From positions 462,561 to 498,649 of the forward strand of contig NW_002060966.1 in NCBI RefSeq assembly GCF_000150275.1: DNA of 36,089 nucleotides, written 5' to 3'. The notes beneath the pieces were generated by a model. That model was not told the DNA's origin and made no database searches. It saw only the letters and a program-made list of their open reading frames with translations. Positions 8,234 through 36,089 of the stretch are shown here, piece after piece. Origin of the DNA: Trichoplax adhaerens. Its lineage: Eukaryota > Animalia > Placozoa. Both the position numbers and the translations under genes were made by a program. Numbering within the stretch: the first letter of the stretch is position 1; every line of letters starts with the position of its first letter.

Positions 8234-8373
8234 GTCAGTAGTATTTTTAATATTTCTGATACTCGATTTTATGAACCAAGTCATTTAATATTAATGATAA
8301 TCCAATAAGATCTGATATAAAGAAGAATCCGCATAATCGGTTTGCTAATTTATCTTCTCTACGCATACAATAG

Positions 8374-10726: not shown

Positions 10727-11738
10727 GTACTAGGATCGTATCAGATGATTTTAATGGTCTACTTTTAGGAAGTAATCAATGGATAAATAATAATTCTAAT
10801 ACTTCAATACATGAGAATAGATTAATAAAAAACTAGCCTTACCTTAGTAACTAATTTTGGCTGGATTTGAAATTAATATAAATCATTATAAAGTACCGTT
10901 ATCACTTAAAAGTTTGAATTCCTTGCTTAAACATTAAATTTGATTAATGACATCTATCGAGCCAGATGAGTGTGAACCAGAAATTTGCAAGGCATTTTCA
11001 AGTAAAGCAATTGATGACAGCGAAGAAGGGGAAATGCTTGCTTTACCTAAAAAGGTTTTTCATTGCTTAAACTAGAGCATTATTTAGCCATGATGAGATT
11101 ATTTACCAATAGAGCAATTTACAACTTGGTAATATAGATATATTGTCCGTTTTTCTTCCCTACGTATAGCATTTAATGCGATTTACATTAATGTATTCAA
11201 TGCTATTCATTATTCTAATTCTCACTCAAATATGAACTTCTGATTAATCATTAGTACAATATGCATAATTATGAGACGATAACAATATTAAGCTCATTAT
11301 TTAAAATTACAATGATAATTACAGGTAGTACAGCATTGATTCTTATAGTTTTAAGTTATAGCCCTCTTAGTAAAGGCAAAAATCGTCAACTTACTACAAG
11401 TTCATTTTTAATTTCATTCTGCTTTTACAATAACAATGAATCTTTAAAGTTGCCTTCATAGCATTACGTAACAAAAAACACCTTATAGAACTTGTTTAGC
11501 AATTTCATTGCTCCATCTTATTTCATTTTTAGAAAGAATTTTACGCGGCTGCAGGTAAACATTTCAAAATTATACCCACCATGAAGAAGAAAGCCTTATC
11601 CAAAAAAAAAATGGACAGGAGTAATCATAACTTCATACTAGCTGATTCGATCTATAGAACTCAAGGCATCATTAGCTTATTCTAGTCTGTCAGGTAAAAT
11701 TTATTTTATATAAGAAAATCTTTTTATTCGTTTAAAAG

Positions 11739-11827: not shown

Positions 11828-12593
11828 GTGAGCAATTACTCTTACTGAGTATAAAAATTAGGTTTGGACATGCTTGAGGAGTAAATTATCGATACAAATT
11901 CAATTTCCGTCTTTAGCTTGAAAGAGCAATAGTAGGTAGTTCTGAAAACTTCTCCATGGAAGAACAGACGTATACGGCAGAAATAAAAGATGAGAGAACG
12001 CAAAGTAAACAGTAAATCTATCTATGAAATTTCAAATGATATTCAATATGTATATATAGTATATATCTATCAGATAGAAACTGTCTATTAATCGTTATTT
12101 TTATATTTCCAATAAATTAAGAACTATCTATAGGTATGAAGCAGACTAGAGGTGCATTAGATTCTTCTATAGAAGCAATTTCATCATTTAATTCAAATTC
12201 TCCACGTACTGCTCAAGATGGCCTTCAAGCAGGGGTTAGTAAAACTTAAAGTGTATTCAAACAGCTTCAGAATTTGAATTTTGCTCTGGGAAGTCATCAT
12301 CCATTATATTATATTTGCTTTTTATCAGCAGAAATTAATTCGGAAGTTTAGAAGCCTAGCTACTCTCAGAAGAATGGAGGAGTCAAGTAATAATATAATT
12401 GAATTTTACTTATTAAGGCGATATTTTGCGTAGAATAACTAAGCTGGCAGTTTCATTTTTGGATAGAAAATGAGCTTTAATAACTTGTATGCATTTATAT
12501 ATCTATGCTATGTTCAATTTACACTCGCACAATAGATTAAGGTATTTTATTTAACTGAAATAGCTTAAAAAATTAAAATCATGTTATATACAG

Positions 12594-13202
12594 CTATCCC
12601 ACCTCCTCCGTCATCTTTAGGACCCACACCGACTTTAAGATCTCAACATTTTCGGATAAGTAAAAGTCGGATAGCTTCAGGACCTCCGCCAGCACAAGCA
12701 TCTCAACCATGTCCACCTCCTCCACTTCCAGGATCTTCAGCATCTGAGCTATTCCCGCCTCTTTCATATTCACAATCTAAGACTAATGAAGAACTATTAG
12801 TTCAACAAATACACAAGCCTAAACCAAGTTCGTCTATTGAAATAAACAAGCACAAGGCGAAGATAGAATATCAATACGCTAGTATGAATGGAGCTAAGGA
12901 GGATATTGTAGAAATAGAACCTAACAGGGCGGCTAAACTTGGTTCACTGGCAACTTCTGCTAAGGCCTTAAAAGGATTCTTACGTGTCGGGAGACAAACT
13001 AATAGCTTTCTATCTAGAACTAACTTTAATTCTTTAGGCGCAAGTGCTGATGATCATTCTAATTTAGCTAAGGAGGAAACATTAGACGATGATAAGAAGG
13101 TAGAATACAGGCAAATGAAATTCAGAAAATCTAAAGCGCTAGCAAAAAAGTACAAATCTGCGAATACTAAAGACAATCTTGTTGATGAGCCTGAAAATCC
13201 AA
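12594..13202 (+). CDS. PARP4: PARP4 Pro-rich low-complexity exon (IPPPPSSLGPTPTLRS..GPPPAQASQPCPPPPLPG..KFRKSKALAKKYKSANTKDNLVDEPENP)
   Basis: Part of ORF-track entry 12581-13213. Phase-1 acceptor tatacag| at 12593, phase-1 donor a|GTAAGA at 13203. Pro-rich composition parallels the human vPARP Pro-rich region. The 5' boundary is inferred from phase only. Confidence 0.55.
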
Positions 13203-13351
13203 GTAAGAATTAAATTGCAATATAATCAATTTATTAATAATTTACCCGCACTAAATTATGTTCTAATAGCCAGTAAGTTAATCTAAGAAAGAGTTTGTAG
13301 ATAAATTATATTAGTCGAGAAATTAATCCTAATCGTTTTAATTATTCATAG

Positions 13352-13988: not shown

Positions 13989-16974
13989 GAAATTACATGA
14001 TTTTGACTACGGATGATTCCATACGGTAAAAGAGCTAAAGAATACACTTTAAATTTTTCCTTAATTCACAAAGCGATACGTCTGCTTTATTCTATCGTCG
14101 TTTATTTAATGTTTTATCTCTAACCAAAATGTGATAGGTATGTAAAAACTTTGCTTACTATGTCGGCCAAGTTTACTGGTATTTTTAATTTTATATTCTA
14201 TAACTAATCTCATGTCCAAAGTTTTGGCTATGGACTCCTATGATATGCTATAACACAGCAAGTAGATTCAGTTCTGCGTACAATTTTACATTTGAAATGT
14301 ATTACTATAAAACTAATTACGACTTCAGGCCATAAAACTGTATTATCTGCTTGATGCGAATTGATCAAATCATTTCCAAATATATCAATTTGCGACCATA
14401 ATACATCAATAATTTTGAAGGAAGTTTAATTTATTTGTAATAAATTGGTGTTATAAATCTTTGAAATAATTTTTGGGAGTATAATTGATAGAGCTGATGT
14501 CACTTTTCGGTATATTATACTTTTGGGCCTAAATTTTATATTTCAGAACATATTGAGTTTATGCATACTCGTATAATAAACAATTTAATATTTTGGTCTA
14601 TTTAAGCTGTAAAAACAAAAGCAAAAGCAAAAGCATGTATTCAATGCAGGGAGTTGGTTCGCATTGCAAGGTGACTTCTTGCTCTTTCTTACCTATGAAG
14701 TCGCGCTTTCGTTACAAGTTATGACTTAATATGGCCAATGAAGTTGCCACTAAATACTGATTCTCTCCTTAGAGCATTAAAATAGTTATTATCCAGTGTT
14801 ATATCACTTGCTAATAATATTCTTTGCCTTATGCTTACGAGATTCATAGAAGCAAGAACAAGTTAATAATCTCATGATTTCTGATATACACCAAAATTCA
14901 TTGAAAGGCTACTACACCTAAATTTATGTTTACCAATAGAGCGTCTGATAGATCAATACAAGGAAGTATATGTAATGACTAGCGCGTATTTCCTCTTCAT
15001 AAAGAAAATAGATAGTTATAATTGTTGTACTTATCAATATAGTGTATTTTGCTTTAGCTTTAGCTAGAGAAGATACGCATTATTACTAAGAGACCAATTA
15101 AATTTATTTTTATGTCAATTATTTTTGAGATAGAATATTGTTTGTAATCATAGATGTTATTTTGTTAGGATTATCGCAGCAGTCAATGTTAACGAACATT
15201 AAACTTTAGTCCTGTACACTATTGACGACTTGGAAATTCTCGAACTCTATAGTAATCACATTATGCAACTTATTTAATATGGGAATCAAAAGCTGCTGAT
15301 GATTGAACTGTGTCTTGGACATTTATAGTTACTAAATTTAAAAGGCTAAAACTTTAGTATAATTGGATAATTATATCCTTAATTTACATTAGGCGCAGTT
15401 TAATCAAAAGTATAAAAGGAGAGGTAGTAGCTAAAAATATTAATTTGACTTACCTATTCTTGAAGACTGAACTAGGAAATGCGAGTCTAACTCGTAAGTT
15501 CTTTTATTATACGCAAGCAACTATTATTGGTGTTTGGTGGTGATTGAGGCTAGATGCTGTGTCTTAGCCCGTAATGTTATTCGCTATACTTTTATTAATG
15601 CTTGATGGAGACTTAGTCTAGGCGCTACGTGTTAGACTTACAAGTTTTAAATTTCTATTTTCTTCTAAAATATTTTGTTTGAATGCTTCACGGTTGCTTT
15701 GATTGAATCATTTAATAATTTGCTTTATTGCCTCTATCAATTAAGTATTTTATAGAATTACTCACAATAATATTTAGTCTTAGCACCTACTGACATGCAC
15801 GCCTACAGTACATATTAGTGTTAGGTAGAGTACGATTTTAAGCCTACCGAGAGTTATACACTGCTAGGTTAGAGAATATCTGTCTTTTGAGATAGAGAGG
15901 TTTTAGCTTATAGCGGCTTCAAATAAAGAATTGCAATAATATCAAATTTATTTAATAGCAATGCTGATATCAATATCGGTAGGATAATACATTACAGTAC
16001 TGTACTAGTAATTGAACTAATTGTTCACTATGGGGTAATAGACTCTTAAAAATCATGAATATCAACTTTAATTAATAGAACTGCAGGTTTGTATTCAAAT
16101 TGAGAATTATATTGCTAGTATCTGCCTCTTCGACAATCTGCTCATTGTAACAACTCTATCAAGAGCCACCTTTATCTGATCATCATCTAAGATCTTTAAT
16201 TTTATTTAGTTGCTAGTCCTATATTTAATAAATATCTTTAATTAGGCCGTAAATGAGGCTATATCCGAAAATTTGATTAATATTCTCGATCGGTTTTTTG
16301 AAATTTCAAATAAATATTACAATCTAAGTACCTCTGTATTCACGGCCAGATAACTTTACTGAATCATTAATAAAATACCATCATTATTTAGCTATAGAAA
16401 CGTTAATTAGAGAAATTACTAGACTAAGTTAAATTACAGTAATGTCAGAACAAAAATGAAATTTCTATCCTACTGTATGTTAATAAATTTTTATGGCTAT
16501 TAAAAAGAACGACTTATCCCAAGAACTTTGATTCGTTACAACTACTATTCTTATATAATTAAGTAATCACTGTCTACGAATAATTTAACGTTATGTCTGA
16601 GTATTATTGTACTGTATATGTACTTCGAATAATAAGATACGTAACTCGTATAAATACATAATTCAATAATTAAATGCTTAGAAAAATTTGCAACTTAACA
16701 TGATGCATTATATTTGCAAGGTTAGCGCATTGAGAACGTCAATTAAAATATTAAATTGGTAGTACTTGTATTGCATTTGATTTAAGAATTCTCGGCCTAG
16801 TGTTAATTAATTAATTTCATTGGCAAAATGTCTATTATAGCTATATACGGGTACTAAAAATAAAATTTATCTTAGTTTAAATTTTATAGTAAGATTATCT
16901 AGAACATTTAGACGTCAAACTCTTCATAAATGATATGCACTAGAGTGTTGGAGCGTAATAGAAGCAAATTGCCA

Positions 16975-17191
16975 CGCATTTAGGCTTTTACTGGACTCAC
17001 ATTCAGAATTTGAAAAAGAAACTCCATTTAGTGTCGCCTGCCAATGCCAAGCCATGCCTTATAAATTGACCTCTGATCAATCAAAGACATTTACAGTAGA
17101 AATTTTAATCGATGTACCGCTCAAGCACCATCTATATTCGGTTGCAGAGAAGCTACGTGCAGCAGTACTCAAAGATGCAAATAGAAGCTAA
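16975..17191 (+). pseudogene. Degenerate death-domain exon copy (..AFTGLTFRI / EFEKETPFSVACQCQAMPYKLTSDQSKTFTVEILIDVPLKHHLYSVAEKLRAAVLKDANRS*), frameshifted
   Basis: Paralogous to the DD exons at 21.2 and 26.2 kb (the FEKxxPFSV..QC..M....TVEIL....L...L.SVAEKL pattern). Relative to those copies it has a 1-nt deletion near 17008 (cagaatttgaaaaa versus cagaaatttgaaaaa) that splits the domain across two frames. Confidence 0.45.
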
Positions 17192-18156: not shown

Positions 18157-20921
18157 ATCTTTTGCTTTATCGTATGATGCAATACCAGCTGACAATAAGG
18201 ACATGCACCAAGTTCCTCATAATCTGATATCAATATCTATTTGGTAATTACAACACGTAGAAAAACCAACGGCTAAAGATTAAAGTCAGGTAGTTTGATA
18301 AGGTATCATTCATTTTCAGGTACTGCTTTTTAATTTGTTTATCTAAATAAGAATTTTATTGCTTTAATGTTTCTTGTACCACTAATGATGAAAGCTATAA
18401 AGTTTAAAGGCAGGAACTACAAGATTACGTTATTTCTGCTGAATTGTCTATCCTCTACAAATCAAACAAATAAAGACCATCATGTAAGAAACTTTACTAA
18501 AGTATGAGTCAGTGATTGATAGATTCCACTTCATGATAGTAATTGCAAGAAAATCTACCAATTTTATGAAGACAAGCAAAGTATTGAAATAATTAGCAGG
18601 AGTGCGAGATTAATTTGAATATTTTCCACCTCCGTCCCGGTGCAGCATGATTTTCTTGTAGCACTCAGTCATGATAAATAGGTAATGGTTGATAAACTGT
18701 TAACAAACCATTAAAACAATCTGTAGGTAGGATAGATTAGTGGATGCATCTTTAAAAATTTAAACTCTCTAACGCCATCAACTTACCATTTAAGTGTTGA
18801 TTAGTGCAGCAGCAAGTAACTTAATTATTAGAATTGTAACCCCCGTAAAACCACCAGCTTCGCTAGATATTTTTCAAAGATTTACAATTTCTTAAAAACG
18901 ACTATGCAACGTTTTCATTGCCCATTGACTCCCATCGCCACGAGTTTCACTGACTTCATTGATGATTGCAATCTGAGGTAGAATAAAATAGTCGACGTAT
19001 CATATCATGAAACTGAGCTACAGTAAAATGCCATGAACTAAACAATATTATCTGGGTTATTGAATAACCTCTACCCTCATTTTTATAGCCCTTTATCGAT
19101 GGCGCATGAAACAACGTCCAGGAGAGATACCTATCAATCTAGAGAGAACATAAAATATTAAAAATAATGGCTAACACGAATTAATATGCCAATAGATACT
19201 CGAGGATATTAGATCCTCTAGAATCAGTAAATTCGACTGAAAGAGTAGCTTTTAATATATTTGTAGTAATATTCTGACTTCATACTGGTACGTATCCATA
19301 TCACATAATTTTCAGCTTTAAGTTGAAGTACAGTGTATCGCTTCCTTGCTCTCTTTAGTTACCTCTTGTTCGAATTAAATTTTCATTTAGTGCAAGCCCC
19401 AATGTGCCATGCAGTTGATATTTGATACGCAGCAACTTAATTAAAGAAATTAAAACAATGTTTGAATTGAAGCCAATGTTCATTAATTACTTATTCGCTT
19501 AACTAAATAGATATCAGCTATGGTACCCACTATATCGTATCGTTTCTACGCCTGAATTTTTTATTCATTTCATTTCTTTAAAGTTGATAGCCTATAACCA
19601 ACACACCATGTGGATCATTGAATTGAATTTAGACTAGATCATGACCTATAAAGTTACACGGGTTAATTTGTCAACTTTGGCTTAATTAATGTTTACGCAT
19701 AATATAATTAAAAATAGAAATTTATTTGGAGAAAAACTAAAACTACTACAAAAAAAATAAATATTATGGGCCTACTGTCAGGATTGTCATCTCTAAAATC
19801 TAGCTGCAGTACCGGTACGACTCTAAGTCCTGACTACATCCACATCATTAGCGAATTGCAGTAAACCAACAATCTCTCTAAGACAATAATTGGCCCAAAC
19901 TTTATTGAAATGTCAGCCAATTTAGAGTACAGTGATAATAACATTAGTTATCAGCATATAGATAATATTATACAACTATGCAGTTATCCATTAAAAAATA
20001 TGCTAACCGTCATAGATAAATTGATATCAACTAGATAATTTAGCTTTCACGAGCACGGACTTCTAGGTATCTAGTAGTCTATGTCACGAGTCAATTATCA
20101 ATATAAATAACATAACTTAGTTCTGGATCGTAGATTATTAGTCATCTTTGATATGAAGTGAGGCAGCAGAATTTATTACATTCATCTAAAGGCATCCATA
20201 GTAGCTCAGAGCCATAGAATATCTTATAGATTTATTAGAGTCCTGATGATCATACACACAGTAAGGTATTAAGTCACTACAGATATTTGGATAAGAATAG
20301 TATCGCAACTCATGTATTAGGATATGGTTACTTTATTGTACTTTAACTGCCAAATATGATGTCTAAGTTAATACTGTGACTATTACCACACTGGATGACA
20401 GATTAATCGCTGTAAGATATTATTAGTTACTACCAATAAATTGTAAAATTAGGTAAAATGTAAATATGCGTATACTGATTATAGCCGCAAATGCTACGAA
20501 AAGTATGCAGGTACAAGCAGTCAACTTCGGAATATCCTGGTACTTTCTTTTAGAAGTCTTTCTACTTATTGTATTAGGCTAGAGTAGATGTGTGCAGATT
20601 ATCTTTGTATTAGCAATCTAATAAAGTTCTAATTCCCTACAACTTTTTAAATCCCCTAATCGATTTTATCGAAATAAATTGCGTCATAGCCAATAAGTTC
20701 TCGGATAACTACCTATATATTACGATTTCTATGCAAAAGTTACTCTATAACAGATATACGACTATACAGTAGAGAATTTCGTTAACGGTTTACTTTAATT
20801 TACGCATGTATTTTTCTCGATATGACATAAGGAAAATGAACATGTTTCGCAAGACATAACGATATGTATGTTGGGTAGTTAAGCTAGATAGTTCCGTTAA
20901 TTGTTTAAAATAATGCTATTA

Positions 20922-21402
20922 CTGGATTCGTAAATTGGATTCAATTTGAATTAATACTAAAGAATAAAATTTTAGATAGTTATCAGTTAGCAAGTGAATT
21001 TGAGAATTCTATCTCTGTAACACCTGTATTTGTAATCTACTTAATTAGCTACATAGGATACTAAATAAATGTTTTCGTAGTATATACTTCCCATTCAGAT
21101 ATTTTACGTATATCATTTAGCTGTCTGACCTTACTTGAAAAAATATTACCTAGGAAATTAGAACAGTTTGAAAAGAATTAACTCCAACGCTACGCTATGA
21201 CTGGACGCCGGTTAAGAAATTTGAAAGAGAAAATCCGTTCAACGTAGGCGATCAATGCTTTGAAATGCTCGATACACGCAGCAAAAATAACAAATCTGCG
21301 CTTATAATAGAAATTCTAACGGATAAACTAATTGATTGCGGTCTTCGTTCTGTTGCAGAGAAGTTATATTCAGCAGTATATAGCGATCCAAACAAAAGCT
21401 AA
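20922..21402 (+). repeat. Duplicated ~480-bp block (copy 1) containing a death-domain terminal exon. Paralog of 25874-26361
   Basis: Extended nucleotide similarity, roughly 75% by eye, with the 25874-26361 block. It starts at actggattcgtaaattggattcaatttgaa and runs through the DD exon. Confidence 0.7.
21176..21402 (+). CDS. Death-domain-encoding terminal exon, copy 1 (LTPTLRYDWTPVKKFERENPFNVGDQCFEMLDTRSKNNKSALIIEILTDKLIDCGLRSVAEKLYSAVYSDPNKS*). Parent gene model incomplete
   Basis: Open frame with a DD consensus pattern (LG.DW..L...f...nP....eQ...ML.......at...L...L...gl...AekL). Phase-1 acceptor aaaag| at 21175, stop TAA at 21400-21402. Upstream exons not identified. Confidence 0.6.
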
Positions 21403-24400
21403 TGTAACTTATTAAGGGTTAATAACTGCGTATAAAAGTAGCTGCTTTGATCAGATTTAGTATCGATGAAATAATGTTATTTACTATAAACATGTACATG
21501 CACAAAATTTATTGCAATATAGATTATATTATACTGTAGATTGTAGAATAGATCAATTTAATAACCGTAACTAATAATAGTGATAAGCATTTGACTTTAA
21601 ATTGTCTTTATAAGATAGTTAGTGGTAATAGGATTAATTTCCGTAATTAGTGCTTATAAAAATGAAGCCTCAAGCTATTCTAGATTGCATTTTGCTTTAA
21701 ATTGCTGAAATAAAGTGCGGGCCTTTGACTAGAGAACTTATTCAAGTCTCAATTATATTCCTGATTTTAGGCGATAGCAAGCAAAATTACCTAACTTTTC
21801 ATCAGATGTGGTATGGTACTACTAATTGTCCACCCGTCTATTGCTATTACTTCATTATTAAGATTTGAATTAAAAAGCTAAAGAAACGGGAATTAAAAAA
21901 ACTTATTAACTCAAATTTGCTTATTTAAAATCTTGATTAATCAATAATCAATAATTTAGCTACTTTTTCTTAGTATAAATTTCAAGAACTTGTACACGGG
22001 TGCAAGATCAGTACATTATTTAAAACGTTGATGATTACTCCTTAAATTAGATTAAGACACTAAATTACTGCCTAGTAGTACATATGACAGCTGAATTCAA
22101 GTAGAAATTTCTTAACTGTTGCTAGAAGAAAGATATCTTAGCAGAGAACATTATAGCATTCTTCTGTTAGAACTGATTCATTTGCATTTTTATCGGAAGT
22201 AGCAAATGATAAGAGCAGATAAAGTAGAATTGTCTTTTTATTTTAAACTATACTAATTTATACAGATTAGGATACCCGATTAGACAATTAATTAAATTTA
22301 TTAGAATAATTGCGTCATATTCTTCTCTCGTTATATAAGTACTTACTTATTATTCAGCGTTATTTACTGCAACACTTTAACATTAGGCTGTACTAAATTA
22401 ATCTACAGGCTAGCGAAGCAAAATAATCTATTTAAATCGTGACTATAATGATTAATCTGGTGGCCGAGCCGTTAAGAAGTTGAAATAATAGAATACTAGT
22501 AAAATGGCCTAATTTGAAATATTGCAAACTACTACAGAGATAGTCTATCGTGGTAAACTGGTAGGACTGGCTGGTATTCAGATTAATGAGAAAAAGTTAT
22601 TCATGCAATACAGTTGAAGCTTCAAGCTCATGGTCAATTTACAATCCAAGAAGTAGGAGAAAATGTTTTTGTTTTTAATTTTTAACACCTCATGTTATAA
22701 TCCTTCCATATACTGTAAGTAGTCAAAAGAATCTCTTTCTAGCTAGTACAATTTATTACGCACACTGACTTCGAGGAAAAGTTAATTTCTCCATTTGATC
22801 CTGAATATTGGAAATTCAAGTGATCTTAACGAGACAAATTCCAATCGATGGACCCAAAGCCGATAAGTTAAAGTGTCCTATCAAACTTTGTATCGAATAT
22901 AAATAGGATTTGTAAACAGATGTTGTGATATCCGATAATTATAGCATGAGTGCCAGCAATGTAATTCAAGATAATATTGTTGAACTATGAACACTAATAC
23001 TAATACTTTCGGTTGTATTTGTTATTCAATTAAAATGCGGAAATAAAATAACGAATTATTTTATGAAACAATAGAATTACTTCTACTAAAAAGGTTCCAA
23101 CGTTGGAAACCCATGGATAAGAGGATGCAGTATCATAAATATATATGTTATGGCCAATATCAGTAACAATATCTCTCTTAAACTATATAATAGTATCATA
23201 TACTGATATGAATAATTTAAAGTTATGATGCTCAATTAACTCTTTAGTCCTACATGGCGGCAATTGTCATTAGAGCGTTCGGTATTTTATTGTCTATTGG
23301 ATCATCCATATTTTAAGCGGTGCACACGTAGCAGTCGTCATATTACCAACAAACTAGGTAGCTTTTAATAATCCTGTTGGACAGTTAAATGTGTCCTGCG
23401 TAGGTTCGTGATATCAAAGATAAGCGAGAGCAGTCTCAAAATTTTTCACTTAATTCAAGATTAATTTGGTGAGTAGATATAATTAGCAGTGTATGTACTT
23501 GGATTAATATACGATATGATCAGAAGAAATATAGCAAGATTAGGTTAAATTAAAGCAACGTTAGAACGAAAACGAAATTTCTGTCTTACGCTAATCAATT
23601 TTTGCAGCTGTTAAATCAACGACCTAACAAGAAACCTTTTATTCGTAAAAATTATTATTCTTGTATAATTCATTAATCACATATTAGGTATTATTAAGTG
23701 TTATGGTACAATTGTATTTGTACTTATTCTGAAAACTAAAATACTATAGCATAAGAACTATCTTGCAATTAGAGAAACACCCATCCGGCAATTTTCAAGA
23801 TCGTTAGAGTTTTAAGAACCCGCATACGTCACAATATCGATGTAATTTACTAGAACCGTAGAATAGTTAAATATATTCCAAAATAAAATACCCAGATTAC
23901 TTTCTTTCTATTTCAATCTTTACAAATGAGAATGATTATTTACGTACGATGTCAGAAAATTTTGTTTTGTATAACTTAAAATTTTACGATAGGTAATGGT
24001 TATTACAAGTTTTCTTGAGGATGTATAAGCATACAGTGCTTTATTTGCTTATTATACTTATTGTCTGATAATTCGAATTTAAAAATGCTATAGCTGGTTA
24101 TAAAATGATAGGATATTTTCATAAAATAGTATATACTTCAAGGTGTGGTAATGTAATATTTAGAATCTGTTAAAATTGCTACGCTTGTAATACTTAATAT
24201 CCTATTTTATTTTGCTATGTAACATTATATACTCTCATTACGGACTACTTCCTGACTAGTTTACTAGTCTAACGTAAAACAATTACTTTGAGTTGCCTCT
24301 ACAGATTACTACCCTAATCTATCGAAATATCTAGTAAGAATATAGTACTGCAACTATAACGCTTAAAAAGTACCCTTCTAAAAGGCTCACAACCAGTAGA

Positions 24401-25035
24401 TAGACTATACTATAATCTACAAAATATTGACTATTTTTAGCCAAAATAACAATAATCAGGTTATCGATATTCTACTATCTTTACAGATAAAAAATACTTG
24501 ATTATCTATACTACGGTAGACCACTTACATTTTATTATGGTATAACAGTAGATACCTTAGTAATTTAGCGTCATATGTCTTGCCATCAACACTCAAAGTA
24601 AGCTATCTTTAAAGCATCTCTGCAAGTTTTCTTAATAGAATATTATTCATAAATAATATTGCTAACAATTTTTAGGAAATTTCTGAAATGTGTAATAGTG
24701 TCCTTATCACGATACCCGTACTACTGTGAGTAGAATAATGCTGCGATGTAGGTTATCATTTAATATAGAATTGTACAGCATATTCATTTTTGGATAAGAG
24801 TAAACGAATTAGTCAGACACCTAATAATATTTATAAGAAAGCTCAAAGGACAGATTATCTTCATATCATAGTTTACCTCAAGTTACATTCGTACGCTAAC
24901 AATTTGTAAAATAGCGCACTAAATTATACTAATTTATATCTAAAATAATAAGGCTAATTTAGTTTATTAGTGTAACATTGCATGTAAATAGATACTCTGT
25001 AGCTGCTCGCGAATCTAGTTAGAAGCTATAAATAA

Positions 25036-25045
25036 GGGGGGGGGG
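25036..25045. repeat. G10 homopolymer (GGGGGGGGGGAGG) inside an AT-rich intergenic region
   Basis: Direct reading. Confidence 0.9.
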
Positions 25046-25873
25046 AGGAAATGTTTTAATACAAAGTGTTCTAATTTTCATCTTAGTAAAGATTGGCAGT
25101 TGTGCTTAGTCGCCGTTGAAAGCAGTCTCTGTGTTATACTTGGGGTTGTAATAACAAAATAGTTTAAAAATCATCAATATAGAAATTACTTTTGCCCTTT
25201 CAGTAGAAAGTAAATGATGCCAATGATGATAAATTTCAACACATTAGATATTTATATTTTAAAATAATGATAAAATTTAGAATATTAACCCTTACGTGAC
25301 ATTAGGTTAGTTGTCTTTCTGTTATTCTTAACTGACTTTCATTTAAATCTTTACTACTAACTAAAATCATTCTTTTAGTGATTTCTAAACAAGTAAGACT
25401 TATCATTTATTTCAGATGGAGAATACAGGTATTTAAAAGTTTATTAATTAATTTAAAGGCATGCAGATCAATAATTATCACATTTACTTTATAAATAATT
25501 TTTGATAATATATTTCAAGAGGTTAGAGTTAACCTATCATTTTAAATCTATGATGCAGCATTAGTTGCAACTGTCAAGACATCATGATTACTGCAAGTCG
25601 CTAACTGTAACTTATTCCATTGTGTACAGACTACCACATACATCATAAAAAGCAAGGAGAGCCTAAATTTTTAAAGCAAGGTTTGATTTCAGGCAGAATT
25701 ACTTAAAAATTTAGCAAAATATTTGTGCTTCTCTCGCTTAATGCATACTGACGTTACGATAAAGACTAAAATATTGTTTATATAAAGGAATTAAGTAGAA
25801 ATAAACTGTTATCAGTGTAGTAACGAAATACGTTCTATTGCAACCAGTGTCATTCAAAAAACCTGATATGATG

Positions 25874-26361
25874 TACTGGATTCGTAAATTAGATTCAATT
25901 TGAACGCATATTAGGATGTAAAATTTTTAGTAGTCTTGGTTTAACATTTGAATTTTAAGAATTTTACCTCTGTCGCGCATTTATAATGTTATTTGCAATC
26001 TGCATAATGCAGTACATAATGATGCCAACAGTAAAAGTTGTCGTAGTGTGAACTTCCTATTCAGATTATTTAAATGTATTATTTAGATGCCAGACCTTAT
26101 TTGAAAAATACTACAGAAGAAATTGGAACAAATTGGAAATAATTAGCTACGAAGCTGGGCTATGACTGGACCGCGGTCCAGAAATTTGAAAAAAATAATC
26201 CGTTCAGCGTTGACGATCAATGCTTTGCAATGCTCGATAAACGCTACAAAGATGGCAAATCTCAAGTTACAGTAGAAATTCTAAAGGAAAAACTTGTTGA
26301 ATGCGGTCTTCGTTCAGTTGCAGAGAAGCTTTATTCAGAAGTAAATAAAACTAGTAACTAG
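25874..26361 (+). repeat. Duplicated ~480-bp block (copy 2) containing a death-domain terminal exon
   Basis: Paralogous to 20922-21402 across both the intron-like upstream part and the exon. Confidence 0.7.
26147..26361 (+). CDS. Death-domain-encoding terminal exon, copy 2 (ATKLGYDWTAVQKFEKNNPFSVDDQCFAMLDKRYKDGKSQVTVEILKEKLVECGLRSVAEKLYSEVNKTSN*). Parent gene model incomplete
   Basis: Clean DD pattern. Phase-1 acceptor aattag| at 26146, the same phase as copy 1. Stop TAG at 26359-26361. Confidence 0.65.
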
Positions 26362-29111
26362 AATTTAATTTGTAAACTAGCTCTTATATTTTGCTATGAA
26401 TTTGGTTTTCGCTTGGTTATGTTGCACCCTGTCTCTTGTTAATTAATAATTTGGGTCTTTATTTGACTTTGCTAGTAATAAATATAATTTACCTCGTAGA
26501 AAGTTAGAGTGGATTTCAGTGTTATAGCTCTCATAATAAATGAACGTATGCATGAAAATGCTATCACCATCAGAAACTAGTTTTGATTCCTTCAATTCGA
26601 TAAAGAAATCAATTTGAATTATTAACATAAATATGAGAATTACAAAATCGTGAAGTATTTATAGTATATTGCATGGACTATTGGTATAGTTAAGCCTAAA
26701 ATAGGCTGCAACTTTGCGTAATACAATTATAGCTGGATGTGGCACATCTGGAGTTAGGGTAAGGATAGACTTCACCTATTTATCTTTTCGTGTGCAATGT
26801 TTAATAATATGTCGTTGATCGGGACTGTAAGCTAAACATTTGACTGTTAGAACAACATTATGATTCAAGGTCAGAAAGTGAACTAATAATGCTTTCATTC
26901 ATCTATCTAGCAAATCTATCTCGTAGCATGCTACTATTATAATTAAAGATGTATTTCTAATGTGTTTGCTACTGTACTGAACTAATTCTACTTCTCAATC
27001 TTAACCATAAAATACTTTCGCTCTTATATTTGGTAACATTAATTACCAATATTCGAAATGATGCATAGACTTCGATAAAATTGATAGCAGAATAAACCGT
27101 AATTCAATACGAGAAATGCTTATTACTGTAATTACTTATAGTCTGAATGAAGTATTGGTGCGAGTTAATGAACTCCCAAACTTTATGTAGCCATAATCTT
27201 TCGTAAAAAACGCATGGAGTCTTACAGATGTCAATGAAAGGCGAATTCTAAGTCTTTCTCAGACATTTTTTTAAATAAAAATTTTTAAACGCCATAGTTT
27301 AGATATTACGATACAAGTTATTTGAGTTCTAAAATGTTTCAATTGCTATTTTTACTTAAAGAGATGTTTAAAAATGACATACTAGAAACGCTGAAGACAA
27401 CAATAACGACCATTAATATCATAACTACTTATTCCATATAACTATATCTTACATGATAGCCACCAAATCCAATTCGATCCACAATAATTATCCTAAGAGA
27501 TAGATAAACCGCGTAATTGTTCACGATCTAACATTTAAAAAGTTCCTTGCCTTATAATTGGAAAATCCTGAACATTTTGAATATTACCTCAATAAATAAT
27601 TGGATACATAAATCCTCTACTAATTAGTTTCAATTACCTTAAATTTAGCCGAGAAATACATAACTATTTCGCAATATCACAAGGCATTGCAGATTTTGGT
27701 AAAAGGATTATCGGGGTTCGTACTGGCTGCGACTAATTTTAGTAATTTATCGGCTTTGCTAAGATAAAATATAAAATAGCAACGTAAGCTTAGATAATTA
27801 ATAAATTTATTCATAATATTTACAATCTATTAAAAGCAACATTTGCTCGCACGTTCATATTACTATATTAAGTAAACCCTTTTAGTATTTAACTTCGTTG
27901 CTTAACATCAGCTCACATTCTTGCGTTATTAAGCATGCTAAAAGTTAAGCGTAATTATTTCCAGAAATCACTCTGCAATGGCTATCTTCAGACAGCAAAA
28001 TAGAGCGAAATAGGTGTCAATAGACTATTAGCAAACTAACCTTTCTGCAATTTATAGAAGGAATTAATCTACTGACAAAGAAAGAGAGATCTGCTACTAA
28101 TAAGATATAAATTATACAGTGATATATCTCGATAACGTAGAGAATGGAAACTAAGGATCACGTCAGACGAGATTGCATTGGAATATTCACGCTCTGATAA
28201 ATCAAGTACATCAAGTCTAGAAAAGAGTACTGTGAAATTATATTATCCGTCTAACAGATTTACTAAATACTTTAGTAAATGATGATTGGATACTTATCGG
28301 TACCAAGTAATTGTTATACTTTATTCACATTGTATCAATTGAAGTATATCTGCATAATTAGAAATATAACGTACTTTTATTGAAATAGAAGAATAAATCA
28401 TCTATTGTAGTTACAATTAATTACATTATTATTATTATCATCCATGGACTTCTACCTGTTATTAATTAGTGAGCAAAAAGAATAGTTACAGTTTCCAATC
28501 GTGATATATAATACCGTTCTCAAAACACGTGATGTGAAAGAATCCAACTGTTGCACTGATAAGTATATTTACGGCCTAAAGTTGATAGTTTATCTAGTAG
28601 AAAAGATTCCGATAATAACAAGTCTAGACCATTGTAATAGACCTACTGCTACTTCGTTAGGTTGGTAGTTTAACGATCTTCCGGTCGTAGACAAACTTCG
28701 ATTCTTAAATAGCGTAGAAACGCCTAACTTTAAAGAATAGTTAACAAACCTTAAGTTACTAGCACATTTGGGCATAGTCTAGAAGCTGTCAGTCCCAGCT
28801 CTCAGAACGTGGTATAAGAGTGAATACTATACCGGTACTTTACTGTTTCATTATCAGCTACGGCCACTAACATAAAATATTTTGCGCAAACCATTACAAC
28901 CATAAAATGATCATTGGTCTTCGAAATCATAGAAAAACGAATAATAACGTTACACAATCCAAGGTAGTCAAGTAAGACGAAGAGTAACAGAGTATACTCG
29001 CACTGCTCTTTGAGGCTCTTTTATTGTTAGAATTAGAGATAGAAGAAATGGTGAAGATTTAAAACATGGAAAGATAATTTCATTGTTTCATTTAGTGAAA
29101 AGTCGTTGGAT

Positions 29112-30131
29112 ATGGCAAGTACAAATAAAATTGATAGCCTTACGCCTTGTGATAGCCAATCTAAGGAGAAAAAATCCATCATGGAGGACCTTAGAAACTT
29201 AATTACGACTGGTGGAAATGAACAGCAACAAAACAACTACGAACAGGCTTTAATAACCTATAACGAAGCTTTAGATCGAATTAATTTCGTAACGATGGTC
29301 GAAGACAAGGACGAGAATGAATATTATCATGGTCTTTATTTAGAAATCTATCGAGAAATGGTTAAAATTTACAAGAAACTACTTCGTTATGAAGATATCC
29401 TGTGGATTTATCAAAAAATGTTAAAAGTGCAAATTGAAGTATCCGGAGAAAAAAGTCAAGATGTAGCTAAAATCTATGAAAAGATTGCGTATGGTTATGA
29501 TAGTCTCAATCAAACCCATAAAGCTATTGCCATGTTTGAGAAACATCTACATATTAAATTAGAATTATATGGCGAAAATAGCCATGAAGCTGCTGATGCT
29601 TATTTTGATGTTGGATTAGAGTATGAGCGCCAATCACATCATTATAAAAGTTTGTCTATGCTTAAAAAATCATTACGGATTAAAATAAACCTTCTTGGAG
29701 GGGAGCACTACGATCTTGCCAGTATCTATAGTATGATTGGCGATATATATACTGATCAAGATAAATTTAAGGAAGCAATCGCCATGTACGAAGTCTGTTT
29801 AACTCTTGAAGTACGTCAATATGGAGATAACCATCTTTGTATTTCAAATCGTTATAACTCTATTGCATGGGCTTATCAATGCCAAGACCGATACAATGAT
29901 GCATTGGGCTTGTATCAGAAATCATTAAATATAGTTGTTGAATTATTTGACGAAAATGATGATCATATCCTCGAAATCCAAGAGCAAATTGCTTTAATCT
30001 CTAAAGAACAACATCAGCAAAAAAATTCTAAATTGATACCACAAGATAATCTTCAGAGCAATGAAGATGCCGCAACAGTAAATGAAATTATAATCAAGGA
30101 AGGTGATCAATCAGTAGGTAATGCTCATTAG
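29112..30131 (+). CDS. Single-exon TPR-repeat protein (TPR_12 / kinesin-light-chain-like repeats), 339 aa
   Basis: ORF-track entry 29106-30131. First in-frame ATG at 29112, with an upstream in-frame stop at 29052. It carries four to five 42-residue repeats with the A..Y..iG..Y..q.ky.eAi..ye..L.I pattern: VAKIYEKIAYGYDSLNQTHKAIAMFEKHLHIKLELYGENSHEAADAYFDVGLEYERQ, ASIYSMIGDIYTDQDKFKEAIAMYEVCLTLEVRQYGDNHLCISNRYNSIAWAYQCQDRYNDALGLYQKSLNI. Confidence 0.8.
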   Translation: MASTNKIDSLTPCDSQSKEKKSIMEDLRNLITTGGNEQQQNNYEQALITYNEALDRINFVTMVEDKDENEYYHGLYLEIYREMVKIYKKLLRYEDILWIYQKMLKVQIEVSGEKSQDVAKIYEKIAYGYDSLNQTHKAIAMFEKHLHIKLELYGENSHEAADAYFDVGLEYERQSHHYKSLSMLKKSLRIKINLLGGEHYDLASIYSMIGDIYTDQDKFKEAIAMYEVCLTLEVRQYGDNHLCISNRYNSIAWAYQCQDRYNDALGLYQKSLNIVVELFDENDDHILEIQEQIALISKEQHQQKNSKLIPQDNLQSNEDAATVNEIIIKEGDQSVGNAH

Positions 30132-31011
30132 CCAAAAAAAATATTCATTTAGTCTTATCTTATCGATTTTATTTATACCAATTCTTAGCCGATTTAGAAT
30201 TTATAAATATATATTCCTTACTATAGTTACCTGTTCTTGAAATTTCGTTATTGGTTTCGGTTCTATCTCACTTTAATTGCGGTTATCACGATATCAGAGG
30301 CGATTCTTAATGTAAATTTAATCCAATTGAGATTAGGTATATAAATCAGTTCTGATAAAGCACCGATGATAATTATGAATTTAACATAACGCTAATTAAT
30401 CATAGTTACAAAATCTATTCACTAGCTCTATTAATGGCTACGATATTTCTTGAATGAAGCACTTGAAATTGTCGTATTACAGTCAAATCAATCATTTTGA
30501 CTATAAAATCATACACATTAAACAAGAAAAAATTAGCCAATCATAAAATTGCTACATAATGTTTGGTAAGCTTTAAATTGCAGTATAATCAGCTTGATTT
30601 AAATTAGTTTTCGTTTACTACTGTCTCGCTTATGATTGGAGTAATTCCAGCTATCATGCGCTGTAATCTAATGTGAAGTCAACTTCTTATTCTAAATGGG
30701 TAGTTTCTACAGTACAGTAGTTAATACGGTTGAAATTTCACTTGCCAGATAGCGAATGGGGCGCTGCTCATGCTTACAAAGTTTGAGAAGTTTGATTTTT
30801 AAATGAAATTGATATCGTCAAATTTTCTGAATCATCAGCACTAATTAAACTAGTAGAATTTCAATTCTATCATTTACTTGTATTTCTACAGCCATTAGCT
30901 TGTGTATATGATAGTGAAATAAAAATTGACTAAGTGCTAGTAAATAGATACGCGTATTCTGTATATAAAATTATCGCTGAAATACTAACAACTAAACCAA
31001 ATTTGATGTAG

Positions 31012-31128
31012 TTTATAATTTGGAAAAAGAAGAAAGTACAAATGATGGTCGTTATGAAAGCCCAGTGGCTAAAAATGTACCTTTTAATTCTTTTAAAGCT
31101 AAAATTAATCCAGCCGAAAAGCAAGCCG
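31012..31128 (+). CDS. IDR-ZU5 gene, upstream coding exon fragment (..YNLEKEESTNDGRYESPVAKNVPFNSFKAKINPAEKQAG)
   Basis: Part of ORF-track entry 31020-31220. The frame has no in-frame ATG, so the 5' boundary (acceptor near 31011) is uncertain. The phase-1 donor g|GTAAGA at 31129 matches the acceptor at 31288. Confidence 0.4.
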
Positions 31129-31288
31129 GTAAGATATTTCATGTCTCTAGTTTGGATCTACCAGTGTTCCAAGGTAATACTGACCGAATTATCAATATAG
31201 TTTGCAGTGCCATGATGTAGGTTATTACATTATTATTTTTCCTAGTATTAGAGAAAATTTGCATAACCTATATTCATATTCCTAATAG

Positions 31289-34068
31289 GGAAAAATATTC
31301 TTACAAGATCGAGTCATTTATTACCTGAAGATGATCATAGTATGAATGACAACCGATTACAAAAGGCGACTAGCTTACAGGATAACGTACCAAATCCTAA
31401 TAAGCAACCAAATAAATTAAAGAAAGTTAATATTATCAATTCAAGGATTTATATTGTTGACGAGTTACAGGAAAAAATATCGAAAGGAGGCCTGAATCGC
31501 TCCGAAGAGAATGAGAGCAACTCTAGCTTACCAACTAGTAAATCGGATTCCGAAATTAGCACTAAAATTTTAATACCCGAAAGTAATTATGACACTCCAG
31601 GGCAAAATAAGTCTATTAGCGTAATAGATCCCAAGTACGATAATTCAGTATTTGATAGCATTGTTAAAACTGAATTCAAAGACTTGGAGAAATCTGAAAC
31701 TAAGCTGTTTTTACCTGAGAACAGACCCTATCCGCCGATCAGACAGCCTCGCCGTAAGATGAACAGTCATCCAGCAAGTACTAATTTAACTACTAATACA
31801 ATAAACCTATCTAGTCACAGCGATGATAGGCATTCAATAGCTGTAAATTTCAGTGAAGTAAGGAGTCAATCATGCATTGAAGAACTACAAAATGATAGTA
31901 ATCAGTCTATGAAAAAATCATCAAGCTGTCCAAACACAAGTATGAATAAGAGTCCTACTAGTCAGAAGAAATCCAAATTTAAACCAGACGATTTTTGGCT
32001 TAGTAGAAACCTCGCTACATCGAATGAAGATAGCGTAGCAAAGTCTAGGAATAATACTATGAATAAGTCTCCAACGGAGAATAAATTTAATAATAGATTA
32101 AATCTAGAGCAGCAAAATAATTATCAAAATGTCAACACATACAATCAATCAAATCTTAAACCTAGCCAAATTCGTGGAAAGGCCTCACAGCAGAGTGACC
32201 CTGAAAGTTCTTCTCATGATAACATTCAGCAATTAAATGGGAAAAACACATTGTCTAATAGCCAAAGTAATCGATCTCCCAGTAAAACATGGCAAGCTAG
32301 CAAGAGTAATCAGATCATCGAAACTACAAGCAAAAATGACTGGAGCCATCCATTACAAAAGGAAATTACTAATCCATCATCTACTAAGAAGAAAGTCGTT
32401 AGTACTCAGTCTAAGCTAGATAACCGATCTTTAATAAGCAACCCATCGAACGAAGAGAAGTCCGTTTCGATTGAATTACCTGTTCTAGACTACACTAAGT
32501 ATTCTCAGGAAATCAAATCCAAGCGGAATAATAGCTCTGGACGCCAACATGATAGCAATACTTTGATGAAGCACAAATTCCAAGCATCTTCAACAAATAA
32601 TGACACGTTTGATAAGAATAGACATCAGCAGAAAAATAATGTGAAATTTAGAAAGGGTTCGACATCAAGCAGTACTGAATTTCCAGATGAAGGTATTATT
32701 TGGCAGAAAAATACGAACAAGATTTCGTCAGAAAAGAAAGCGCAATGTGCTAGTCCTGAATCTCCTAATGAAGTTCAATCCAAACATAAAATAAAGCTAA
32801 CGTCAGGCATTAAATCTAATGAAACAGACTTTAAAGTTCAAGTAGAAAGCAACCAACAGCAACAAGATTATAAATCATTCAATTCTGTAAATAGATGTAA
32901 ATCAAATAGCTCATCATTTCAGAACGATGGCGGACCAATTCCTAAAAGTAATACAGGAATCTTGTCTACCGACTTAAAGCAAAAAGATAGTGCTAAACCA
33001 ACCTCAGCGAACCACTCGAAATTAATTAATTCTAGAATAGGAAATGATGGTAAACCTATAATTAAAAGTAAACCTAAATTGGGTCCTGGCGCCAATTCAG
33101 TAATGCGAAATAAAGGTAGCAGTTTATTTCCTAAAGATTCTTTCAAATCAACTCATACTGAGCCTAGCCAAAGCAACGAGAGGCCAACTGAAAATAATTC
33201 CAAATCTTCAGTGAATAATGATGGTCATGATTCATGGCCCCGAAATACGTACCTATCCAGATCAAGGAGTTCTGATGTTGTCCACCTAGATAAATATTCG
33301 TCTGATGATATAATCAAGCTTACTTCTAGTTCTCCCCAGCAGAAACTAAATTTTTATATAAGCGAATCAGAAGCGAACCTTTCCGTGACGGGAGATGTTT
33401 GTAAATTGGATGATAAATCGGAGACCTCACCACAGGACGACGTTAATATCGTAATAAATCAAAGTAAAAATCGCAGAATGCATCATACTATTCAGATTAC
33501 GAAAAAATACTCAAAGCAAGAACAACTTGATCAAGTGAGTAAGGTAAATTCTGATGTACCTAAAGGAATTAAAATACAAGATAATTTTTGCGACCCTTCG
33601 ACTCTGGTATCAACCGTTGCAGCGAATAAAAGTCGCGACCAAAACCGTAAAGAACTTACGCGTATGCCAGAAAATCAGCTAAGAGAAAGACAAAATATGG
33701 GAAACGAAATTCCAGCCCATCAATTCAAGCAAGTGAATTTACAAGAAAATAAGAATGCACAACAATCCAAGGCTCAATTTGGCAGCAATCAGGACCATTC
33801 TCAGCAAAATCAACTACCAAATCAATTCAATGATAAAGAATCTTTAGGCTGGCAAAATACGAACCATAACTATACTCCTGAATACCGGTCTGTTGAAATG
33901 CAACAGTTTGACATACAGCATGCTCAAAATTCTAAAACGATGTCTCATAAAGCCTCTATTACTGGCAAGAAAGGAAGTGCATATTCTAATTCCCAAGTTC
34001 GCTCATTCAGTGCTAAAAATAATTACCATGGACAAAATAACAATAATGGGGATCAAGCCGAATTTCTA
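31289..34068 (+). CDS. IDR-ZU5 gene, 2.8-kb exon encoding a ~930-aa low-complexity S/N/Q/K/T-rich disordered region
   Basis: ORF-track entry 31342-34185, extended upstream in frame to the acceptor cctaatag| at 31288 and trimmed at the proposed donor cta|GTTAGT at 34069. Strongly hydrophilic composition throughout. Confidence 0.65.
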
Positions 34069-34154
34069 GTTAGTAGGCAATTAAATCAATCGAAATTAGA
34101 AGGTCAGTATAACTATTATAAAATGATAGTAGCATTTCCTACAAAATACAACAG

Positions 34155-34416
34155 CAATATACTGATTGTAATGATCATGTTCTAGACACTAAGGATAAGC
34201 CCGTAATTAAAAAGAGCATCAGTGTCCAGAATGAGCATAGCGGAAAATCAGGTAATAATTCATCTAAAGCTCAACAAGATGTTACTGGGCAAGAAAAGAA
34301 TATTAATAATGACATCAATCGTTCGCGTAATATTTTGATAACTGACACAGATACACAAATAGTAGCATATAGGCCAGAATTACCACAAAAAATGCAAGTA
34401 ATAGCATCATCTCCAG
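34155..34416 (+). CDS. IDR-ZU5 gene, 87-codon exon (QYTDCNDHVLDTKDKPVIKKSISVQNEHSGKSGNNSSKAQQDVTGQEKNINNDINRSRNILITDTDTQIVAYRPELPQKMQVIASSP)
   Basis: Open frame of 87 codons with the same composition as the big exon. Acceptor tacaacag| at 34154 and donor g|GTAAGT at 34417. The phase-1 end matches the ZU5 exon start. Confidence 0.55.
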
Positions 34417-34757
34417 GTAAGTCTTTAGGTAATCAAGAGTGAGATACGTCGTAACTTAAAATCATTGCCAATTTCATTTCAGTAATCTATCCATACATTT
34501 ATCTCTATCGAAGTAGGAGATTCGGCTGTTTCAGCCCAAATAGTGTAATTTCTATAATTAATCTAATTTATTTACGTACTTTTCTCTTTGTAGTGTTATG
34601 TTTTCATATCAGATTTACACGGACTATTTAGCAAAACTTATAAACTAATCTTATCACTTCTATAGAATTGATTTAACTGTACAATCTGAAGATTTTAAGT
34701 ATACGGTAGCTAATTATAACTATTGCTAAAATATCTCACATGTTAATATTTCATTAG

Positions 34758-35698
34758 ATCACGATGAGTATCCTGAGCTATCGGCTACATTCGAATTAGT
34801 ACCTAATAAAGTCTTCTATTTCGAAAACAGTAAAATTTCTGGCCTACGAATTACATTTCCAGCTCAGGAAAGATCTAATAAAATCCGAACTCGCATGGTT
34901 ATTCATTATGCTGATCCTCCATATTCCAATGAATTAAAGGATCAGTCGATCATTCAGTTATCTTCAATCATTAAATTAGATAGCTATGATGCCAATCGTG
35001 GTTATAAACCTTCCATACTCTTACGATTACCAATTCCTTTGGCAACAAGAATTCTTGAAATATATAAAATTGACTCTGTGCAAGCATTACCGGTGAAGGT
35101 TTTATATCGTATTAGCGAGTATTTTCCTACGTGGGAAAAGCTAAATATAGACTACCAGTATTGCTTTGAGAATCAAGGTGGTCACTGCATAACAATTCCA
35201 ATCTATCGTACTGGATATTACGTTCTTGGATACCAATATCAATCAGATAGTTTCAATTCAAACTCATATCATAGTCTATATTATGTCTTTCCAAGTCTAC
35301 AACAAGAAGTTAACGTCTTAGCAGTTCTTTCTGCTATTCAATCACAGTCTGATCATGTTCATTTAAAATTTTTTGTGATCCGTAAGGGAGAAAACTCACA
35401 AAGTATAATTGACAAAATAGCACCACCCTACCGGGAGACTTTATTACAACATACTGGACTTGAGTATGCCATTCTAAGCAATGGCAGATATAAAATGAAT
35501 TTCTTACCAAAAGATATTACCTGCGAAGATAGATTTCAAGATAAAAACATAACCGTAAATTGGAGCCTTCGCCATTATATTTGTATCGATATTCAATGTC
35601 AGGTTATTAATCGTGACAAATTGAATAATTTGTGTGTAATAAAGTTAGAAAGATTGGATGAGAGTCATGACATTCTGGAATGTTATCAACTATGGTTA
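34758..35698 (+). CDS. IDR-ZU5 gene, ZU5 domain exon (plus probable UPA), 313 aa
   Basis: ORF-track entry 34895-35707, extended upstream in frame to the acceptor tcattag| at 34757. (D)HDEYPELSATFELVPNKVFYFENSKISGLRITFPAQERSNKIRTRMVIHYADPPYSNELKDQSIIQLSSIIKLDSYDANRGYKPSILLRLPIP fits the ZU5 pattern seen in ankyrin/UNC5/PIDD (sGlrv.iP.ga......i..r..kp........e..ls.ii.l.P.g..F..Pv.l.lPh). The following ~150 aa are UPA-like. Donor tta|gtaaaa at 35699. Confidence 0.7.
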
Positions 35699-35825
35699 GT
35701 AAAATGAAGGCTTTCCTGTAATCTTAAAGATACATTTACACAGATTTTACTTGTCGCAAATCTTGAGCTGATTCCAATCTTCCCTCAATGCAATTTTAAT
35801 GAGCTCTGCCACCTTTCTTTTTCAG

Positions 35826-35904
35826 CCTAAGCTTTCAGATCATCGCTCTAAAAAGTTGTCTAGAACTAGACGAAAACGACTACAACAGTCAATACTAGTA
35901 CAAA
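35826..35904 (+). CDS. IDR-ZU5 gene, small basic exon (PKLSDHRSKKLSRTRRKRLQQSILVQ)
   Basis: Phase-0 acceptor tttttcag| at 35825 after the 35699 donor. Canonical donor a|GTAAGT at 35905. The gene continues beyond the window. Confidence 0.5.
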
Positions 35905-36089
35905 GTAAGTACCAGTACCTTAATTAGTAATTATTGGATAGGTAATCTGTATCAGGTAGTGCAATAGCCGAAAAAGGCGTGGTATGTTGATGCTATAAGT
36001 CATATATAGTCATATTCTAGTAGAATTAAGAGTAAATTAAACTGTCAGTTGAATACGATGACTGACTACCGTACTCTTTCTTGATTTCA

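Follow-up and report, generated by a model that had tools for sequence, protein, structure and literature searches.

Do two neighboring open reading frames (ORFs) in the genome of the placozoan Trichoplax adhaerens belong to one gene, and what kind of protein would that gene make? We analyzed a stretch of 36,089 nucleotides (nt) of contig NW_002060966.1 (the window), whose composition is that of AT-rich eukaryotic DNA, with about 31% GC. Its + strand carries an ORF of 947 amino acids (aa) at 31342-34185 and another of 270 aa at 34895-35707. A first-pass annotation, made from the letters alone, had joined both as exons of one gene that fuses a Ser/Asn/Gln-rich disordered region of ~1000 residues to a ZU5 domain. 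Our analysis supports the fusion and extends the gene upstream. We put a probability of about 0.75 on a single multi-exon Trichoplax gene, of which seven exons fall inside the window and two outside it. It would encode a TPR array, a disordered linker, a diverged ZU5-UPA module, a basic linker, and an end that is CARD-like in the orthologue from Trichoplax sp. H2 (H2).

Exons and joins of the gene

The ZU5-candidate exon (window 34760-35698, 313 aa) was used as the query in an exhaustive HMMER search of 1.84 billion representative proteins. The best match (P0001) was RDD38356.1, "hypothetical protein TrispH2_009717" of Trichoplax sp. H2, a protein of 1876 aa whose residues 1418-1727 correspond to the window's ZU5 exon at 99% identity. 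The gene model is already public, deposited as a hypothetical protein. The H2 contig NOWV01000181.1 is 99.85% identical to window positions 18909-36089, over 17.2 kb, and the H2 gene models were produced by an evidence-based MAKER pipeline with assembled transcripts (PMC6057997). RDD38356.1 joins the same exons as our spliced reconstruction of the window, including those that hold the 947-aa and 270-aa ORFs. In the reconstruction, seven exons (28907-35904; Table 1) are linked by GT-AG introns at every junction, with consistent phases and no internal stop. The remaining two exons fall outside the window; on the H2 contig, exon 8 begins 143 nt farther on, counted from the window end, and the CARD-like domain is encoded by the final exon. 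The product would be a soluble protein of ~1875 aa, on a transcript structure that we infer.

The 947-aa frame runs through 972 codons without a stop, which at this composition would happen by chance with a probability of about 1e-31.6; each of the other five frames contains 47 to 158 stops. Three joins had been named in the first pass (34068/34155, 34416/34758, and 35698/35826), and all of them proved to be GT-AG, in frame, and free of stops. The join 34416/34758 combines G and AT into an Asp codon, exactly as in RDD38356.1, and 35698/35826 agrees with the frame of the H2 model. However, 34068/34155 has an equally valid rival in 34102/34186, which the H2 model uses. The introns measure 86 and 83 nt, respectively; both are GT-AG and in frame, and either one removes the TAG at 34183. 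Either intron may be the one used; the affected residues belong to a disordered region without homologues.

Both ORFs are intact from ATG to stop, and they could in principle be separate genes, the first ending at the TAG at 34183 and the second starting at the ATG at 34895. However, the first Met available to the 270-aa ORF is at residue 46 of its exon, and the paralogues described below align from residue 2 or from residues 24-27. Homology thus begins 20 to 44 codons upstream of that ATG, and four predicted strands of the AlphaFold model also precede it. Since this conserved ZU5 N terminus lies upstream of any start codon, the 270-aa ORF needs an upstream exon and cannot stand alone. Canonical in-frame splice sites bridge both gaps, and the H2 model joins the two ORFs. 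Separate genes are therefore hardly credible.

The start of the gene is a different matter. The first-pass annotation had placed it at 31012, which is in fact the phase-1 acceptor of exon 3. Exon 3 contains no in-frame ATG and, as a coding exon, would depend on another one before it. In our reconstruction the gene begins 2.1 kb farther upstream, and its second exon encodes the TPR array. This exon scored 108.6 bits with Pfam TPR_12 (cutoff, 30.1) in three stretches and 59 bits with TPR_10, and by these matches the array is of the kinesin-light-chain/NPHP3 type. The TPR exon is linked to exon 3 by the H2 model, by matching phases and canonical sites across exons 2 to 4, and by two proteins from independent annotations, P0007 and P0018, that carry TPR and ZU5-UPA in one chain. 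A split into two genes has to be weighed against this link. A TPR-only gene would end at the TAG at 30129-30131, and a second gene, starting at the ATG at 31342, would encode the disordered region, ZU5-UPA, and the CARD-like end; exon 3 would then be untranslated or no exon at all. This split amounts, in essence, to the gene as drawn in the first pass. The TPR ORF does stop four codons past the proposed exon 2 donor, the gap from exon 2 to exon 3 is 894 nt long, and the in-frame ATG lies near the start of the giant exon. Moreover, annotations are known to differ on multidomain and TPR gene models (Kamm 2018). Given the evidence-based H2 model, the phases, the lack of an ATG in exon 3, and the two TPR-containing paralogues, we consider a separate TPR gene unlikely.

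Between the TPR exon and the ZU5 exon of this single gene lie 1054 aa, which bears out the predicted disordered region of ~1000 residues. The segment is rich in Ser (15.1%), Asn (11.8%), Lys (10.3%), and Gln (7.7%), and only 21% of its residues are hydrophobic; 73% are polar or disorder promoting. With a mean hydropathy of 0.363, against a charge-hydropathy boundary of 0.425, it plots among disordered chains. We found no significant Pfam domain in it. Tandem Repeats Finder found no tandem repeats in the gene; therefore, the linker is compositionally biased rather than repetitive. No membrane-like segment was found in the protein either, and we rejected a UNC5-type membrane receptor because a hydrophobic segment is absent.

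The 3' end of exon 6 differs between the two genomes. Relative to the H2 contig, the window lacks one T at 35687. H2 uses the donor ATG/GTTAGT, 4 nt upstream of the donor TTA/GTAAAA of the first-pass join. In the window allele, splicing at GTTAGT would be out of frame and would lead to a stop after 24 more residues, whereas TTA/GTAAAA restores the exact frame of the H2 C terminus. Because the T is missing, the donor at 35699 is the only in-frame donor of the window allele. The indel is either a polymorphism for which the tandem donor compensates or a mistake in one of the two assemblies. A third reading takes the window allele as a decaying or truncated copy, in which the deletion and the GTTAGT donor place the end of the protein 24 residues after UPA and remove the CARD-like domain. 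The indel is real between the two assemblies, GTTAGT, preceded by a G at -1, fits the donor consensus better than TTA/GTAAAA does, and the HF/S motif discussed below is already lost. However, the frame is restored exactly by a donor only 4 nt downstream, none of the other exons is damaged, over 5.2 kb of coding sequence, and the indel may be an assembly error in either genome. A decaying copy is accordingly very unlikely.

Table 1. Features of the gene within the window (slashes mark exon-intron boundaries)
Feature	Position	Strand	Details
Exon 1, start codon (MIIGLRNHRKTNNNVTQSKVV)	28907-28971	+	Donor AA/GTAAGA, phase 2; located by tblastn of H2 model RDD38356.1 on the window
Exon 2, TPR array	29096-30117	+	Pfam; 99.7% identity to RDD38356.1 residues 22-362 (tblastn)
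Exon 3, small polar exon	31012-31128	+	Phase 1 on either side, compatible with exons 2 and 4; tblastn and reconstruction
Exon 4, giant, most of the disordered region	31289-34102	+	Ends at 34068 in the first-pass variant
Two mutually exclusive in-frame introns	34069-34185	+	34069-34154 (GTTAGT..ACAG) or 34103-34185 (GTCAGT..CTAG)
Exon 5, last part of the disordered region	34186-34416	+	Donor CAG/GTAAGT, phase 1; starts at 34155 in the first-pass variant
Exon 6, first half, predicted ZU5 beta-sandwich	34758-35212	+	Model residues ~6-151; boundary to UPA approximate
R150-T151-G152, degenerate HF/S position	35207-35215	+	Alignment A1; between model strands 142-148 and 152-159
Exon 6, second half, UPA-like beta-sandwich	35213-35698	+	Model residues ~152-313
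Indel and overlapping donors	35687-35704	+	GTTAGT at 35695, GTAAAA at 35699
Exon 7, basic linker (PKLSDHRSKKLSRTRRKRLQQSILVQ)	35826-35904	+	Donor GTAAGT at 35905

The ZU5-UPA exon and the C terminus

We modeled exon 6 with AlphaFold (AF2) from an alignment (A1) of the window exon and 12 paralogue sequences. The model has two beta-sandwiches and a predicted local distance difference test (pLDDT) score of 75.3; a single-sequence model of the exon reached a pLDDT of 33 and was unusable. In a Foldseek search of the PDB, only four matches had an E value below 1e-3, and all four are ZU5-UPA proteins: ankyrin-B ZU5-ZU5-UPA-DD (1.2e-9), UNC5b ZU5-UPA-DD (1.4e-7), rat NLRP1 (1.8e-5), and AnkG (6.9e-5). 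The next match had an E value of 7e-3. The alignments to 3g5b (ZU5-UPA-DD), 7crw_A (FIIND), and 4d8o have 322 to 337 columns and cover the whole 313-aa query. Therefore, UPA lies within the window, in the same exon as ZU5, and not beyond the window end as had been assumed. By its predicted fold, exon 6 is a ZU5 and a UPA together, highly diverged, and the proposed fusion of the disordered region to ZU5 is supported. The second beta-sandwich is presumably UPA rather than a second ZU5, as judged by its position. A search of the rest of the window for another ZU5-like copy was negative. Among the family members, ZU5 is the commonest weak Pfam match (3 of 13), and on paralogue P0002 ZU5 (PF00791) exceeds its cutoff (26 bits versus 21, two copies summed). 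FIIND (PF13553) matched no family member at an E value of 1 or less.

The C-terminal domain had been expected to be a Death domain beyond the window. We tested it on the last exon of the H2 orthologue, which encodes 107 aa and lies outside the window. The CARD reference consisted of ten vertebrate CARD sequences, each validated by Pfam CARD (60.8 to 94.9 bits). The H2 exon aligned with the ten-CARD profile in hhalign at a P value of 6.9e-4 over 72 gapless columns. The CARD hidden Markov model (HMM) gave it 12.8 bits, a score reached by 0 of 5000 shuffles. As a control, we used a Death profile built from Trichoplax sequences. Its hhalign P value was 0.3, and its HMM score was reached by 771 of 5000 shuffles; a Death identity was rejected on these grounds. 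A word-index homologue search with the CARD-like end found nothing. The CARD signals are each weak but agree with one another, and we conclude with moderate confidence that the C-terminal domain of the H2 orthologue is CARD-like.

PIDD, NLRP1, and CARD8 self-cleave at HF/S or SF/S directly after ZU5. In CARD8 and NLRP1, neither the Phe nor the Ser is dispensable for self-cleavage (D'Osualdo 2011, PMC3210808). At the corresponding column, the 12 paralogue sequences have HFS (8), HFC (2), HLC (1), and ELA (1), and the window protein has R-T-G. The (S/H)F/S motif with a Ser or Cys nucleophile is thus absent from the window protein. Because T and G replace the F and S of HF/S, the protein is predicted to stay in one chain, as ankyrin and UNC5 do. 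Self-cleavage is probably lacking in the window protein, while most paralogues are predicted to self-cleave as PIDD, NLRP1, and CARD8 do.

Several observations weigh against a single gene of this architecture. Pfam ZU5, UPA, and FIIND did not match the window protein at an E value of 1 or less, so that the ZU5 and UPA foreseen in the first pass do not appear in the translation by this route. The family profile met only chance matches among PDB sequences, and phmmer did likewise. The AF2 model is of medium confidence, and its TM-scores to ZU5-UPA tandems are low (0.31 to 0.36); a different domain orientation could be the cause. The Pfam CARD match on the H2 exon has an E value of 0.025 and 15 bits over profile positions 3-81 of 85, below the Pfam threshold of 23.9 bits, and concerns sequence outside the window. 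The link of the TPR exon to exon 3 consists of a gene prediction and matching phases, with an in-frame TAG four codons past the exon 2 donor. Use of the GTTAGT donor, which is closer to the consensus, would truncate the window protein before the CARD-like domain. Lastly, the spliced exon 5/6 junction had no match in metagenome contigs, and an exact-protein look-up of the 947-aa and 270-aa ORFs returned nothing on record.

The Trichoplax family and the neighboring genes

The HMMER search with the ZU5 exon gave 17 matches at an E value of 1e-3 or less. The 13 strongest and the fragment P0017 carry the same module, and the other three are repetitive proteins of other kinds. All family matches whose source name was checked are from Trichoplax; three ENA sequences, and five that were not looked up, stand apart from this count. 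A word-index search with the family profile returned only Trichoplax-labeled or ENA proteins, and one with the ZU5 exon found no homologue. By these sequence searches, the family of diverged ZU5-UPA proteins is found here only in Trichoplax. Clustering at 50% identity gave 12 paralogue clusters. Members such as TRIADDRAFT_54880 (RDD40932.1, "Nephrocystin-3"), TRIADDRAFT_54879, and TRIADDRAFT_52770 share the diverged ZU5-UPA with the window protein at 26 to 34% identity (E values of 1e-10 to 1e-66). However, they have neither a giant disordered exon nor a CARD-like end, and HFS or HFC is retained in most of them. Pfam Death is present in P0003, P0004, P0005, P0009, and P0020; several paralogues carry it at the C terminus or the N terminus. 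P0002 (TRIADDRAFT_52770, T. adhaerens) contains two apparently identical ZU5-UPA copies, at residues 9-318 and 405-714, with 122.4 bits each. This double module reflects either tandem duplication in the very recent past or an artifact of the assembly or gene model.

The motif column raises a wider, and at present doubtful, idea: placozoans may have undergone a radiation of self-cleaving ZU5-UPA-death-fold proteins, with HF/S or HF/C sites, Death or CARD-like ends, and TPR or disordered N termini, which would work like PIDD, NLRP1, and CARD8. The window gene would then be an uncleavable derivative. In such proteins, the N-terminal part might serve as sensor or bait, and its loss would free a UPA-death-fold fragment that nucleates caspase activation. 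If this were true, FIIND-type "functional degradation" signaling would predate bilaterians, and the product of the window gene would serve as a regulator, as a decoy, or as a scaffold whose tether is giant and disordered.

Other genes in the window lie upstream. Two tandem paralogous exons encode Death domains at 21172-21399 and 26143-26358, with Pfam scores of 18.3 and 33.1 bits. These copies (20920-21399 and 25874-26358) are 75% identical in DNA and belong to upstream genes, not to the gene described here. A third similar ORF, at 16934-17188, has no Pfam match. A PARP regulatory exon (2455-2931, 40.9 bits) and a VIT domain (5827-6042) suggest that window positions ~1721-8285 hold a PARP4/vault-PARP-like gene. 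Two + strand ORFs, at 12569-13210 and 10267-10833, are open for 214 and 189 codons from stop to stop and have no Pfam match; one is Pro/Ser rich and the other acidic and Ser rich, and they are probably exons of other genes. In H2, the next gene (NOWV01000181.1, 22438-23017) lies ~3.8 kb downstream of the gene end and has a 118-aa product with TIR_2. Therefore, the locus sits among death-fold and TIR genes.

Comparison with known ZU5-UPA-death-fold systems

The module belongs to the known ZU5-UPA-death-fold kind of cell-death and immunity scaffold and is not a new kind of protein. The first-pass annotation had held that the architecture was not a standard described family. This is right for the exact combination, since TPR, a ~1050-aa disordered exon, ZU5-UPA, and a CARD-like domain were not found together in the literature searched. 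It does not hold more broadly, because the model is deposited and ZU5-UPA-death-fold modules behind variable N termini are well known. ZU5-UPA beside death-fold domains drives PIDDosome and NLRP1/CARD8 inflammasome signaling. To our knowledge, such modules have been studied almost only in vertebrates. The papers we found that cover both FIIND and Placozoa do not describe this architecture. A survey of placozoan immunity makes no mention of ZU5 or PIDD (PMC6321704), and neither Trichoplax nor placozoans are named in the paper in which Aravind's group noted that ZU5/FIIND can be fused to TRADD-N domains (PMC8195603).

By analogy, from which all function is drawn here, the protein is most likely a cytosolic death-fold signaling scaffold. 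If it works like UNC5b, ankyrin, PIDD, and CARD8, partners or signals might bind to its TPR array and disordered region, and the ZU5-UPA pair might act as an intramolecular clamp and scaffold beside the death-fold domain. The CARD-like domain could then recruit partners that carry a CARD; CARD-caspases and Apaf-1-like proteins, both reported from placozoans, would be candidates. The gene leads to a Trichoplax family that had escaped conventional domain searches, and RDD38356.1, recognized only for its TPR, can now be read as a putative death-fold scaffold. The family would be a tractable early-branching system for dating autoproteolytic death-fold sensors, and it offers a comparison of cleavable and uncleavable members inside one genome.

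CARD8 has the closest architecture (disordered N terminus, ZU5, UPA, and CARD), together with the C-terminal half of NLRP1. However, the window protein has an N-terminal TPR array, no Pfam FIIND, and ~10% sequence identity, and its CARD is only probable. Its disordered region is ~1050 aa long, and that of CARD8 is ~160 aa. Where CARD8 and NLRP1 have SF/S, the window protein has R-T-G and is not expected to cleave itself, and self-cleavage is a prerequisite for functional degradation as in NLRP1/CARD8. Sensors of the CARD8 type also set UPA-CARD free once the N-terminal part is degraded, and they are restrained by DPP8/9. We do not class the window protein as a FIIND protein because it has no cleavable xF/S motif and no FIIND or ZU5 Pfam match.

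PIDD1 and UNC5CL resemble the window protein in their order of parts, a repeat-type N-terminal domain followed by ZU5-UPA and a death-fold domain. The HF/S motif of PIDD is also found in the paralogues, several of which end in a true Death domain. However, PIDD1 consists of LRR, two ZU5 domains, UPA, and Death, whereas the window protein has TPR and no LRR, one ZU5, a giant disordered insert, and a CARD-like end, and it has lost the motif. Compared with the ZU5-UPA-DD proteins ankyrin and UNC5, it lacks ANK repeats, an Ig/TSP ectodomain, and a transmembrane segment, and its death fold is CARD-like. In giant ankyrins the disordered exon follows the ZU5-UPA module, whereas in the window protein it precedes ZU5. 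With respect to cleavage, it is nonetheless the non-cleaving ankyrin/UNC5 type that the window protein resembles.

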